DNA of 44,459 bases from Microcystaceae cyanobacterium (lineage in GTDB: Bacteria; Cyanobacteriota; Cyanobacteriia; Cyanobacteriales; Microcystaceae), in assembly GCA_041746575.1 (NCBI GenBank), contig JBGTGT010000128.1, positions 1 through 44,459 on the forward strand. Direction: 5' to 3'. The notes beneath the pieces were generated by a model. It was not told where the DNA came from. It searched no databases and saw only the letters and a program-made list of their open reading frames with translations. Both the position numbers and the translations under genes were made by a program. Positions 29,772 through 35,349 of the stretch are shown here, piece after piece (the first letter of the stretch is position 1; each line of letters begins with the position of its first letter).

Positions 29772-30665
29772 ATGATTAATTTGACCTATCCACTTATGAC
29801 TTTTCTTTCCCCATCAGAAACTGACGAGTTACTTCAACACGTAAATCAGCAAATTGCCGACCATACATTCGATGTAACTGACACAACGACGCTCAAACAG
29901 ATGGTAGAGTGTCTAGGGGATACTAGGGGAATGGTCAGATTAGGATTTGCAGAAGCATTAGGGGCGGTGGGAAAACCCGCCACTTCTTATGTGTTGGCAG
30001 GATTAGCTAATCATCAAAATCCTGTCGTGAGGCGCGCCTGTGGCAAAACCTTGACGTTAATTGGCGATCCCACGGCTGTTCCTACGTTAATTCATTCATT
30101 ACTGAATGATGAGGATACAGTCGTTAAAGGATCTTGTGTTGGGGCTTTGGCGAAATCTGGAGAAACAGCGATTCCAGAATTATTGAAGATTTTAATCTCT
30201 ACTGATCATCCCCAAAGCATCAAAGGTCAGGTATCATGGGCGTTAGCTTTTATGGGGTCACAAGCACGAGAACCTTTATTAGCGGTCATGTCTTCTGACT
30301 CCGAGGAAGTTCGTACAGCAGTGGTATCGGCTTTTTCTAATATTGCTGAAGAACACCCAGAGGATGAACAAGCCTTTCAAGTTTTGATCGATGCCCTAGA
30401 AGATCATTCAGTTAATGTTAAAGCAGAGGCTGCCTCTGCGTTAGGGAAATTAGGCAGAAATCAAGCAATTCCCTATTTAGTGAAAATGTTAACCTCCACT
30501 CAATCAGAAAGTCGAAAAGCGAGTGCCTTAGCTCTGATGAAGATTCGGGATGCGAGTGCATTAAAACCGCTACAGAAAGCTTTAAAGGAAGAACCTGACG
30601 ACGCCATTAAACCCATTCTACGGCTAGCGATCTCTCAAATCGAAAAGGAATTAGAGATTAATTGA
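29772..30665 (+). CDS. cpeF: HEAT-repeat phycobilin lyase, CpeF/MpeV-like
   Basis: LGDTRGMVRLGFAEALG, HQNPVVRRACGKTLTLI, HEAT repeats; lies in a phycoerythrin gene context. Alternative start 29796. Confidence 0.7.
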   Translation: MINLTYPLMTFLSPSETDELLQHVNQQIADHTFDVTDTTTLKQMVECLGDTRGMVRLGFAEALGAVGKPATSYVLAGLANHQNPVVRRACGKTLTLIGDPTAVPTLIHSLLNDEDTVVKGSCVGALAKSGETAIPELLKILISTDHPQSIKGQVSWALAFMGSQAREPLLAVMSSDSEEVRTAVVSAFSNIAEEHPEDEQAFQVLIDALEDHSVNVKAEAASALGKLGRNQAIPYLVKMLTSTQSESRKASALALMKIRDASALKPLQKALKEEPDDAIKPILRLAISQIEKELEIN

Positions 30666-30750
30666 GCAGGCTGAAAAGAAGTTTTTTAAATCGGGTTTGA
30701 TGAAGAGATAATAGAGAAATAATAAAATAGAATCCCTTTTCTAAAAACAC

Positions 30751-32646
30751 TTATATCGTCGCTTTGTTATTAAGATTCAAGGGCAACGAAACTGTTACAG
30801 TTGTCCCTTCTCCCAATTTACTATCAATGAAAATGTTACCATGATGTAATTCAACACATTTTCGGACGATCACTAATCCTAGTCCTGTGCCTGATAGATT
30901 TAGTACATTCTTGCCTCGATAAAATGGCTCAAAAATTTTTTTCTGGTCATCAGAAGAAATGCCTATTCCTCTGTCTCTCACCTGAATCTTAGCGTTATTC
31001 GAGTCTTTGATTAGATGAAGATAAATTTGACTATTAAGAGGAGAGTATTTAAGAGAATTAGACAATAAATTTGTTAGAACAGATTGTAATAATTTTTTAT
31101 CAAATTTTCCTTCAATTGTAACCTCTTGATAAATAAAAATTAGATGATGTTGTTTACCAATCGTTAATTCCATTTCTGAGACAACTTGCTTTAAAAACTG
31201 ATAGAGATTTAAAGTTTCAGGATTAAATTCTAATTCATGAGAGTCAGCTCGACTAATGGTAGAGATATCATCTAATAATTGAACCATTGTTTTAATAGAA
31301 TTTTGGGTACGGTTTAAATTACGTTGACGTTTTTCTGAATCTTGCCAAGAATGGGGGGAATTTTCTAAGAGTTGAATAGAGGCTAAAGCAGTACTTAAAG
31401 GGGTACGAAATTCATGGCTAACCATAGAGAAAAAACGGCTTTTTATGGTGCTTAATTCCTTTTCTCGTTCTAAAGCCAATTTAACTTCATCTACCTCTTT
31501 TTTTTCTGTAATATCTCTCGCATTGATCACAATTTCCTGCTCTTTTGTTCCATCAATAAATTGTTGACTGACCGCTTCAAGAATACAATAAGAACCCTTT
31601 TGTTGCTGACAGCGAAATTCAATGGGCGGAAAAGATTGGGGAACTTTAAGCGATTTGATCAGCTTTGTCGTCGTATGTGCTAAATCGTCTTTATGAATGT
31701 AATCAAAAAGGTTTTTGCTGGTTAGCTCGACGGTATCATAGCCCAATGTTTTTTCAAAAGAGGGATTTTGATAATGGATCGTGCCATCAACATTAATAAT
31801 AATAATTAAGTCTAGCGCGTTTTCAATCAGTGAACGAAAGCGTTCTTCAGAGTAGCGTAAAGATTGATTAATTTGTGCTAGCTCTTCTGTTTGTTGTTGC
31901 ACGCGTTCTTCTAAACTAAGGTTAAGTTCTTGGAGTTGAGTATGAAGTTCCGATTGTTGAATAGCGATCGCAACTTGGGTTGCTAACTGTTTCACTAATT
32001 CAATTTCTAACGGTTGCCATTCTCTGGGATGATTACACTGATGCGCAATTAGAAGTCCCCACAATACCGTTTTAGAAGAAGAATTAGCGGTTAACTGATT
32101 ATTCGGAGAGACCTCACTGATTTCATTCTCTTGATGATTTCTATTAATTTCTGGTTTGCCTCTATATTCTTGAATAATAGGAACAACTAATTTAGCTTGT
32201 ACATTAAACTGTTTGACAAATTCTGCTAAACACGCTTCTACATCCTCTTGTTCAATATGTGTAATCGCTCTAATTTTACCTTCGGTATAAGCTTGATGGT
32301 ATTTAGTGGGAAAAACTTCTTCGGGGAAGGTTTCTCCCAAGATAGCGGGATATTGCGGCAATACGGTTTCTTTAATCGCTTTCCCCGTTCCGTCATTAGA
32401 AATTTGGTAAATTAAGACTCTGTCTGCTTGCAGAAATTCTCTAACCTCAGCGACGGTGGTGCTTAATACTTCTTCTAGATTGAGCGATAGACGAATATGA
32501 TGAGCAATTTGGTTAACTAATCGTTCTCTTTGAGTTTGCTGCTGTAAGAGGGCTTCTGTGCGACGACGTTGATTAATCTGTCTTTGAAGCAAATAATAAA
32601 GAACCAAAAGAGAGGATAAACTAATGCTCAAAGCAGTTAGATTCAT
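30751..32646 (-). CDS. ccaS: Green/red cyanobacteriochrome histidine kinase, CcaS-like (TM-GAF-PAS-HisKA-HATPase)
   Basis: GAF EVFP..YHQAYT.GKIRAI..IEQEDVEACLAEFVKQF with the bilin-binding Cys; H-box SHEFRTPL; GTGLGL; next to cpeR. Confidence 0.85.
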   Translation of the reverse strand: MNLTALSISLSSLLVLYYLLQRQINQRRRTEALLQQQTQRERLVNQIAHHIRLSLNLEEVLSTTVAEVREFLQADRVLIYQISNDGTGKAIKETVLPQYPAILGETFPEEVFPTKYHQAYTEGKIRAITHIEQEDVEACLAEFVKQFNVQAKLVVPIIQEYRGKPEINRNHQENEISEVSPNNQLTANSSSKTVLWGLLIAHQCNHPREWQPLEIELVKQLATQVAIAIQQSELHTQLQELNLSLEERVQQQTEELAQINQSLRYSEERFRSLIENALDLIIIINVDGTIHYQNPSFEKTLGYDTVELTSKNLFDYIHKDDLAHTTTKLIKSLKVPQSFPPIEFRCQQQKGSYCILEAVSQQFIDGTKEQEIVINARDITEKKEVDEVKLALEREKELSTIKSRFFSMVSHEFRTPLSTALASIQLLENSPHSWQDSEKRQRNLNRTQNSIKTMVQLLDDISTISRADSHELEFNPETLNLYQFLKQVVSEMELTIGKQHHLIFIYQEVTIEGKFDKKLLQSVLTNLLSNSLKYSPLNSQIYLHLIKDSNNAKIQVRDRGIGISSDDQKKIFEPFYRGKNVLNLSGTGLGLVIVRKCVELHHGNIFIDSKLGEGTTVTVSLPLNLNNKATI

Positions 32647-33623: not shown

Positions 33624-34841
33624 TTAGTTCAAGCTCTTAAAATTAAGAATTACTCTGTAATTTATCATAGTTCTTTGCCTAAAAAACGAAAAAATATGGA
33701 AAAGAAATCGGAAAGAAAGCAGAGGAATCTCTTTTTTGTTTCCTAAATTTCCTAAAGCAAAAGCCGCACCGCCACGGGATTTTTGAAATTGAGGGGCTTT
33801 ATTCGACAATGCTTCTATTAAAATCTCGTAGGCAGGCTCGTACTTCAGCCAACCCAACAGTTTCATAACGTGATAATGCGCACCATAATCATTATGGGCT
33901 TCTTCTTGATAAGTTGCCATCAACGCATCGGGTGTTTCCGTTGAATAGCTATCTAAAAGGGTTTTACTGGCTAAATAACAACGCCCAAAGTCAGTATGAT
34001 AGAGTTCCCGTATCAGAAAATCAAGAGTGGGTTTGTCATCATATTGATGAACTAAATTTAAGTCATCGGGATGATCGCGAATCACTTGCTCTAAATAGGG
34101 TTGAACTTCAGCAAAAGTTAGTTTTCCTTCTTTTATTCCTTTTTCTGCTAACAAATGAATGGCTCGTAGGCGAAAAACCAAGGATACAGGAGTTTTAGCA
34201 ATATCAGGGATGGCTTTGTAATAATTAGCATCAATTAGGTCTTGAATACTACCCCGTCGAGCGTTGACATTCTGACTACCCAAAAATTCGACGACGGATT
34301 GCAATCCTGCCTCATCTCCACTCAAACGAGCGATCGCTCCATAAGCCGCACTGACGATACAAGGATCTTCAGAAGTCGTAAAAGAACGAATTCTATCTAA
34401 CGCCAGACGATAATCTAATTTGGCCAAAGTTTGAATAATAATTCGATAAATTTGACCTTTTTTATCAAGAATTTTCGCAATATCCTCTAAAATTGCAGGG
34501 TCTTTTGTGCCAATTTCACCCATCGCCCAAGCCGCTAACTCAACCGTATAACAATCGGAGTCGTTTAAACAAGGACGAATTGCTTCAATTGCTGGATCAA
34601 TTTTTAATTTTCCTAAGGATTCTATCGCTTTACGCCGCGCAATACGATTATAAAGCTGATCATCGCAAGTTTCGACCGTTTCTATCAACGCTTTTATAGA
34701 GCGATCGCTATCATAATTAGCGAGATGAGCGGCTGCCACATAGCGATCCGTCGGATCTTCGAGTTGTTCTAACGGCGTTTGAAGTCGCTTAATCGCTTCG
34801 TCTTCGCTGAGGTTAAAAAGATTTAAAAAACGTTTGTCCAT
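33624..34841 (-). pseudogene. cpeY: Phycoerythrobilin lyase CpeY, C-terminally truncated
   Basis: MDKRF.NLFNLSEDEAI, RYVAAAHL, TDFGRCYLA, HNDYGAHYHVMKLLGW. HEAT pattern stops at LGNLGNKKEIPLL (~33718) and then reads through AT-rich promoter DNA. Confidence 0.8.
33664..33715 (-). promoter_or_regulatory. CcaR-type G-box direct repeat with a -10 element
   Basis: Minus strand CTTTCCGATTT-CTTTTCCATAT (33715-33694) followed by TATGAT (33669-33664). First half-site matches the recalled cpcG2 G-box CTTTCCGATTT. Confidence 0.75.
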
Positions 34842-35169
34842 GTCGTGATATCTCTAACCATAGAGGTATTTGAGGGTAACATTCCCCTTATTTTATCCTA
34901 AGGATGACGGGTCAAACCCATCTGTAAAAGTAAAAGTAGGGCAATCACTTTTTCCTTCTCGCTAGGCGAAAATCGGCTGCCGTCTGCTTTCTGCCTCACT
35001 TTATTTCTGAGCTGTAATTGCAAAACAGTAGCAAGGTTTAAGAAAAAGTGTAAAATTTTGTTGCTTTTAATATCTATCTATTGACAAATTTCCCCTTTAT
35101 CTGTCCATTTGTTATGGTACAAAGTAGGTTCTGAATTTTCGTTTAGACAAGTAGTAAGGTAGTATCGCG

Positions 35170-35349
35170 ATGGAATTTCCAATTGAGTTACCAATTGAGT
35201 TAACCGTAGAACAACAATTTAAATTGCAAGTGCTTCGTAAGCAAGTCCAGAATTTAAAGCGAGAAGAAGCGCAAGAGTACCTAATTGAAGTTTTTCGGCA
35301 AATGATGGTGAAAGATAATCTGGTACAGCACCTGATAAAGAACGCCTGA
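35170..35349 (+). CDS. nblA: Phycobilisome degradation adaptor NblA (59 aa, not in ORF track)
   Basis: Manual translation MEFPIELPIELTVEQQFKLQVLRKQVQNLKREEAQEYLIEVFRQMMVKDNLVQHLIKNA*; LT.EQQF and QMMVKDN signatures. Confidence 0.93.
   Translation: MEFPIELPIELTVEQQFKLQVLRKQVQNLKREEAQEYLIEVFRQMMVKDNLVQHLIKNA

Follow-up and report, generated by a model that had tools for sequence, protein, structure and literature searches.

A degenerate, rearranged remnant of a phycoerythrin-acclimation system in a Microcystaceae genome

Why would a cyanobacterium keep the light sensor, the activator and two chromophore lyases of phycoerythrin acclimation in an assembly where no phycoerythrin gene can be found? 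The question is raised by positions 29772–35349 of contig JBGTGT010000128.1 (C128) of the Microcystaceae cyanobacterium assembly GCA_041746575.1; the window that we analyzed is this whole contig, 44,459 nucleotides long. In the known system, as described in excerpts of the papers cited here and below, CcaS phosphorylates CcaR in green light, CcaR binds a G-box and the linker–cpeR operon is turned on (PMC5737509), after which CpeR switches on cpeBA, cpeYZ and pebAB (PMC5737509). CcaR is described as the operon's only activator (PMC12461855), while phycoerythrobilin is attached to CpeA by CpeY and to CpeB by CpeF (PMC7948978). An earlier note on this DNA had proposed a recent collapse of the locus by several deletions, with the regulators left to decay or rewired. 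Our analysis indicates that the locus is a real, well-resolved degenerate variant of the known system, every part of which is well studied, and that it is most likely this system soon after pigment loss rather than a new one.

To judge the parts, we compared them with G002, the only phycoerythrin-bearing congener in our collection (77% complete), with G001, a second congener (92% complete), and with a further 200 genomes from the order, each of at least 95% completeness; pebB or cpeB is present in 66 of these, and the remaining 134 have neither. Being related, these genomes are not independent samples. Four genes proved intact, as the earlier note had thought. The first (29796–30665, plus strand) encodes a HEAT-repeat bilin lyase of the CpeF type, 289 aa long (297 aa if an alternative in-frame ATG at 29772 is used) and 84% identical to its G002 orthologue. 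Its family occurs in 62 of the 66 phycoerythrin genomes and in one of the 134 others. A search with NCBIfam-type profiles gave no match to a CpeF model, and the assignment as a putative orthologue of the characterized Fremyella CpeF is based on co-occurrence with phycoerythrin, on position in the cluster and on an N-terminal motif that we take to be CpeF-like.

On the minus strand, ccaS (30751–32646) encodes a green/red cyanobacteriochrome histidine kinase of 631 aa with Pfam GAF, PAS, HisKA and HATPase domains. The layout is TM–GAF–PAS–kinase, the N-terminal membrane helix having been judged by eye, and the protein is 55% identical over 99% to the CcaS of Geminocystis NIES-3708 (655 aa). Residues E110, C139, L140, K152 and H411 are all there; by analogy with RcaE, the first four are presumably the bilin cysteine and the protochromic residues. 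From the sequence, the photoreceptor architecture (membrane helix, green/red GAF, PAS and histidine kinase) thus appears complete. We discarded the idea that the single PAS domain reflects miniaturization by deletion, since the same form is found in G002 (604 aa), G031 and NIES-3708. Upstream on the same strand lies cpeR (32866–33171, 101 aa), 85–87% identical to G002. The fourth gene, nblA (35170–35349, plus strand; PF04485), is a cluster-associated paralogue, 82% identical to the copy on contig C356 of G002, and is the only nblA in the assembly. The nblA usual in the genus and a neighboring 292-aa gene (G001 C208:14939–16201; G002 C313) have no counterpart there; as proof of assembly gaps this is weak, because the neighbor is absent from 17 of 41 genomes, complete ones included.

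The cpeY gene is truncated, again as the earlier note had seen. Codons 1–375 (33717–34841, minus strand) are undecayed and pass the NCBIfam CpeY cut-off (625 bits against 600) over 382 of 419 positions. The last 44 residues are gone, and with them a motif having a Tyr in 118 of 118 homologues, all of which extend at least 22 residues past the codon-375 point. Judged by these features, the product would not be a full-length CpeY HEAT lyase with the conserved C-terminal repeat. The reading frame instead continues into the promoter of cpcL, from which a tail of 30 residues is read (33624–33716, minus strand). This tail carries a similar Tyr and hydrophobic pattern, matched by 111 of 20,000 random tails, a figure to be read knowing that the pattern was picked after viewing the tail and that the G002 promoter already encodes most of it. 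AlphaFold places a helix at residues 387–403 (pLDDT about 62), within a stretch of low confidence from residue 371 on (pLDDT 47–67), and alignment of the model, at low confidence, lays the tail on the lost helix. A promoter-derived tail that replaces a CpeY helix is a lead only.

What lies between cpeY and cpeR, all on the minus strand, is the wreckage of an operon. The promoter region of cpcL–cpeE–cpeR–ccaS (33576–33718) is 82.6% identical over 144 bases to G002 C258:13491–13634 and contains a G-box-like direct repeat, the putative CcaR site (33694–33715), with one mismatch to the pattern. The consensus was checked against the loci of four relatives: the same motif precedes the target operon in G002, G031, G034 and G038. 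No other site in the assembly has one mismatch or fewer. Next comes the diverged 5' leader of a deleted cpcL (33385–33553), whose local alignment score of 60 against G002 C258:13657–13826 was reached in 0 of 1000 shuffles (maximum 36). The 24-codon linker remnant of the earlier note turned out to be cpeE codons 216–241 (33205–33283; 86% DNA identity to G002 C258:15282–15360), with the changes D217V, V222L, T225P and P236A. A second piece had been overlooked: 27 codons, 88–114 (33282–33363; 82% to G002 C258:14899–14979), with H90P, G93E, P96L, L102stop, E104H, H105P and R107C as well as a 1-base insertion that shifts the frame. The earlier note had likewise missed the cpcL promoter with its G-box and leader (33385–33718), the loss of cpcL itself and the fact that the genes stand in permuted order.

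That order becomes apparent by comparison with G002. There, contig C258 ends with the promoter, cpcL, cpeE, cpeR and ccaS, and contig C356 carries cpeF and nblA, both on the opposite strand, and then cpeY. The first 127 bases of C356 equal the last 127 of C258; this overlap is repeated DNA, and the join is backed by the convergence of ccaS and cpeF in the window itself. In the window, the minus strand carries in succession cpeY codons 1–375, the cpcL promoter, the leader, the two cpeE pieces, cpeR and ccaS, with a divergent nblA before them and a convergent cpeF after them. Measured on G002, the gaps amount to about 1.07 kb (all of cpcL and cpeE codons 1–87), 302 bases and about 200 bases, and cpeY, severed after codon 375, is fused to the cpcL promoter beside the near-intact G-box. 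Because both outer ends of the block fall within a single 163-base spacer that separates cpeF from nblA in G002, the window carries the G002 block in circularly permuted form. We favor the G002 order as the older, since a divergent cpeF–cpeY pair is seen in 5 of 19 loci compared (G015, G016, G018, G033 and G173); in G006 and G014, cpeY sits behind cpeA instead. A repeat search revealed no convincing target duplication or mobile-element ends at the block.

The comparison bears out the junctions at 33205, at about 33282 and at 33717. The interval 34850–35100, also suspected of being a deletion junction, is not one: G002 has the same divergent cpeY/nblA pair with cpeBA elsewhere, and we rejected a loss of cpeBA from this spot accordingly. 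Deleted here are cpcL and most of cpeE. Misassembly does not explain the junctions either. The genome is a metagenome-assembled bin of 4.22 Mb in 134 contigs, rated 99.78% complete and free of contamination, and the runs containing the locus are hot-spring metagenomes of a single study. In three of the four (depths 30.6, 13.2 and 36.7), one unbranched contig of 16,148 bases spans 28201–38000 with no differences or gaps. These three runs are possibly the source of the assembly, meaning that they demonstrate a clean assembly and not an independent occurrence; the fourth is shallow and fragmented. No relative closer than G002 was found, each of four proteins being found as a one-member 90% cluster, and a metagenome scan gave one true CcaS locus in 50.

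The absences reported for the window (cpeB, cpeA, cpeZ, cpeS, cpeT and ccaR) extend to the whole assembly, which also lacks pebAB, cpeU, cpeC, cpcL and, apart from the remnants, cpeE. Its 11 matches to PF00502 are apcA, apcB, apcD, apcF, apcE (two pieces), cpcB, cpcA, a divergent pair on contig C115 and one weak match; cpeB, cpeA and a phycoerythrocyanin operon (CA7) are not among them. The C115 pair (C115:4308–5351), a phycobiliprotein beta/alpha pair located beside a HEAT lyase gene, is 47% identical to CpeB over 139 aa, has no equivalent of Cys82 and recurs in G001 and G002. The PF00427 linkers comprise cpcC, cpcG and apcE only; in the search for cpcL, we found just a CpcG without hydrophobic tail, on contig C12. 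The single bilin reductase (PF05996) is, by our reading, pcyA. When 29 proteins of relatives were used in tblastn, orthologues emerged just for cpeF, ccaS, cpeR, cpeY and nblA, all in the block, and sensitive blastn with the G002 phycoerythrin loci detected no remnant elsewhere in the assembly. A tree built from 28 response regulators groups the ten CcaR proteins as a clade (support 100/99) to which this genome contributes none; its regulators most similar to CcaR, two proteins with 57% and 54% identity, fall outside that clade. Counted by hand, orthologues were found for 0 of 17 phycoerythrin-linked G002 genes from outside the block, two that had been scored as found being paralogues, and for 26 of 30 other G002 genes. 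At 50% identity, 148 of 229 open reading frames of G001 were recovered in the assembly.

The damage within the block is of two ages. Over its 53 codons the cpeE remnant DNA has accumulated 11 amino-acid changes, one of them a stop, plus the 1-base insertion, and 5 of 23 positions invariant across 13 homologous linkers are altered. For the retained genes, we examined columns conserved in at least 98% of 115–118 homologues (for CpeR, 95% of 32). Departures from consensus in this genome and in G002, respectively, numbered 1 and 3 of 85 in CpeY, 0 and 0 of 39 in CpeR, and 6 and 6 of 69 in CpeF, five of the latter being common to both and leaving one lineage-specific change at 64 invariant columns. 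For CcaS they were 0 and 1 of 70 (GAF), 2 and 3 of 23 (PAS) and 8 and 8 of 70 (kinase). Lineage-specific changes thus amount to 4 of 343 in cpeF, ccaS, cpeR and cpeY together, against 5 of 23 in the cpeE remnants (Fisher p = 7e-5), and the retained genes show no stop in 1,405 codons, implying that they stayed under selection long after cpeE had died. In simulations of random substitution, a level close to that of the remnant (0.09 per site) predicts 16 stops, and at 0.02 per site the probability of none is 0.03; if selection on the retained genes has ceased, it therefore did so no more than about 0.02 substitutions per site ago. The earlier proposal of phycoerythrin loss with the regulators kept fits the assembly, although not as one recent collapse.

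Relative to G002, dN/dS of the retained genes is 0.05–0.16 (control median 0.077, 33 genes), and divergence at fourfold sites is 0.550 for the block (449 sites) and 0.586 for the controls (2650 sites), which is consistent with vertical descent. A lower dS of the block had suggested recent transfer; this signal is mostly gone at fourfold sites, and we dropped the idea.

Our preferred explanation, which we hold to be probable, is a snapshot of staged loss, in which the linker went early, phycoerythrin and CcaR disappeared only very recently and the other genes were left stranded. In a vertically inherited acclimation block, cpcL and the cpeE linker would have been deleted and left to decay, reducing the operon to the G-box, cpeR and ccaS. 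Phycoerythrin may still have been made at that stage with a second cpeC–cpeE–cpeS–cpeT operon; G002 has exactly such a second cpeE, which shows how the first could go while the pigment stayed. A single event would likely account for the permuted order: either the block was duplicated in tandem and the outer halves were lost, or it was cut out and put back as a circle. Such an event would have fused codon 375 of cpeY to the promoter and broken the block open between cpeF and nblA. Very recently, phycoerythrin, the bilin synthases and ccaR would have been lost, stranding cpeF, ccaS, cpeR and the cut cpeY before they could decay. Today CcaS could still bind phycocyanobilin, because pcyA is present, and photoswitch; the G-box operon, lacking CcaR, would be off or basal; and CpeF and CpeY, left with neither substrate (CpeA, CpeB) nor phycoerythrobilin (PebAB), would be idle. 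As the only copy, nblA is probably the sole gene under selection, which is likely why one end of the block persists. Bacterial pseudogenes are said in the excerpted text of PMC6054270 to be purged quickly, which fits the clean loss of the other genes. A parallel case that we count for loss is G218, which keeps cpeF, cpeS, cpeT and cpeR without cpeB, pebB or cpeY.

Several observations pull the other way. Undecayed genes are equally compatible with continuing function, and the near-intact G-box at the junction, together with the helix-like CpeY tail, would suit a junction made while the system worked. At least 17 genes, spread over four contigs in G002, must have gone without remnant in under about 0.02 substitutions per site. 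Moreover, the bin may have gaps: a few usually core congener genes (sbcC-, nth- and trxB-like, judged by their motifs) are missing, as are nblA1 of the genus and its neighbor. Phycoerythrin might still be made, with cpeBA, pebAB, cpeZ, cpeC, cpeE, cpeS, cpeT and ccaR on a plasmid or island outside the bin, and the block serving as a CA2 module cut down to G-box, cpeR, ccaS and a CpeY that works via its new tail. One such element would explain everything but the CpeY cut, the undecayed genes and G-box included; phycoerythrin genes of Microcystis travel as one cluster, according to the excerpt of PMC13623022, and G014 has most of its own as one cluster on a plasmid-labelled 329-kb replicon. The combination of cpeY, cpeF, cpeR and ccaS occurs in 0 of the 134 other phycoerythrin-less genomes, and single phycoerythrin genes were missed in 1–4 of the 66 genomes that have the pigment. 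We still regard this explanation as unlikely, given the completeness of the bin, the loss from CpeY of a motif universal among its homologues, and the arrangement in G002, where, on two of the four contigs, these genes adjoin core genes that in the present assembly have orthologues in mid-contig positions and next to different neighbors.

Two further explanations seem to us very improbable. If the retained genes had been selected in new roles, with CpeR or the lyases acting on other targets and an orphan CcaS signaling to an OmpR-type regulator that is not its cognate partner, their low dN/dS, the presence of pcyA and conserved-column changes no more numerous than in the working G002 orthologues would follow. 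Pairwise dN/dS, however, reflects mostly a long functional past, and a new function would have to be assumed for each of four proteins. Both of the nearest regulators adjoin a large gene resembling a kinase of their own, and sites with two mismatches to the G-box number six against three in the reversed genome; with no CcaR-clade regulator and no second good G-box in the assembly, we could not uphold the suggestion of rewiring to new targets. The C115 pair offers no obvious target for the lyases, as it is also present in G001, which is without them. Equally improbable is a partial import, by which the whole set was never recently present and the lineage acquired a circle cut out of the cluster of a relative, closed where cpeY meets the G-box, that on insertion was opened between cpeF and nblA. 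The circular permutation, the lack of remnants of other phycoerythrin genes, the higher G+C (0.44–0.50) of the region to the right, and G001, which has none of these genes (one bilin reductase, no cpeY or ccaS match), all speak for it; synonymous divergence equal to the genome background, ordinary G+C within the block, the lack of convincing insertion marks and the fact that the block holds the only nblA of the assembly speak against it. We are likewise skeptical, if marginally less so, that an orphan CcaS is still selected and signals green/red through another regulator while CpeY is active through a promoter-derived C-terminal helix.

The surroundings of the block deserve brief mention. Sigma-70 and terminator scans at the locus stayed at chance level. 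To its right, 35641–43928 holds co-oriented genes for a glyoxalase, a gluconolactonase, a permease, a short-chain dehydrogenase (SDR), a glycogen-debranching enzyme and a GMC oxidoreductase; with a G+C of 0.44–0.50 against 0.40 and a first 2 kb that has no DNA match in G001 or G002, this is likely a foreign island. At 43587–43928 (plus strand) a 113-aa glycine-zipper protein gives a weak microcin V-like match, below cut-off. On the other side, at 21224–22052 (minus strand), a DUF3598/BFA1 gene is broken into two frames (110 and 161 aa), and its full 262-aa homologue adjoins cpeY in G002.

Because phycoerythrin is patchy in cyanobacteria (66 of the 200 genomes surveyed), its loss is common, and the value of this locus is that of a dated intermediate, in which rod-membrane and rod linkers appear to have gone first and pigment and regulator later. 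If CcaS were still selected, a photoreceptor thought to act only via CcaR, and widely used in optogenetics, would have a second output; if the missing genes simply escaped binning, what is left is a reduced CA2 module whose CpeY is unusual. Among the 134 phycoerythrin-less genomes, cpeR was found in nine, cpeF in one (G218) and a 50%-identical CpeY-like gene in one. Five of them, from two related genera (G054, G151, G182, G198 and G211), have an intact linker–cpeR pair, hinting at a role for CpeR without phycoerythrin. Two drafts, G218 and G047, resemble the present genome in keeping an intact cpeR without cpeB or pebB, and differ from it in that no CcaS or cpeY was found in them; in G218 the genes for CpeS, CpeT, CpeR and CpeF lie at C57:20399–22067 and C250:30427–31671, and the genome has just six core phycobiliprotein genes. 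For 19 thermophilic genomes, the excerpt of PMC10053587 reports phycoerythrin lyases only alongside phycoerythrin.

A CcaR-like gene lies within 9.4 kb on the same contig in all 13 genomes with a CcaS GAF match, nine of which lack phycoerythrin; this survey undercounts, as 14 candidates were scored per genome and G031 and G038 were missed. CcaS without CcaR was thus met in none of the 13. The cluster of G031 (C147:13995–19671) is CA7-like, with a one-PAS ccaS, ccaR, a phycoerythrocyanin-like pair and linker, then a short lyase fragment. Our literature searches brought up neither a ccaS lacking ccaR nor a cluster decaying in this way; such cases may be listed in Hirose et al. 2019 (Mol. Plant), reportedly a large survey of clusters of this kind, or in Hirose et al. 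2010.

Among CcaS/CcaR systems (CA0, CA1, CA2 and CA7), the locus has the G-box of all and lacks, across the assembly, their cognate CcaR. CcaS/CcaR without phycoerythrin is already known as CA0 and CA1 (excerpts of PMC5737509, bioRxiv 10.64898/2026.07.27.740936 and PMC9415938). As in Synechocystis PCC 6803, where CcaS controls cpcL (excerpts of PMC5737509 and PMC12461855), the sensor here resides in a phycocyanin-only genome; those systems, however, keep ccaR within 10 kb and a target gene, whereas the present assembly lacks both ccaR and cpcL and retains phycoerythrin lyases. The nearest likeness is to the CA2/CA2-0 hybrid type of Nostoc punctiforme and Geminocystis NIES-3708/3709, in which, according to the excerpt of PMC5737509, a G-box precedes an operon that encodes a green/red CcaS together with CpeR and a phycoerythrin linker. 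The one-PAS CcaS is that of NIES-3708, and G002 carries a CA2-type set of cpcL–cpeE–cpeR–ccaS, ccaR, cpeBA and pebAB. Compared with these, the present assembly is without ccaR, cpcL, an intact linker, cpeBA and pebAB, its cpeY is fused to the promoter, and the order of its genes is permuted.

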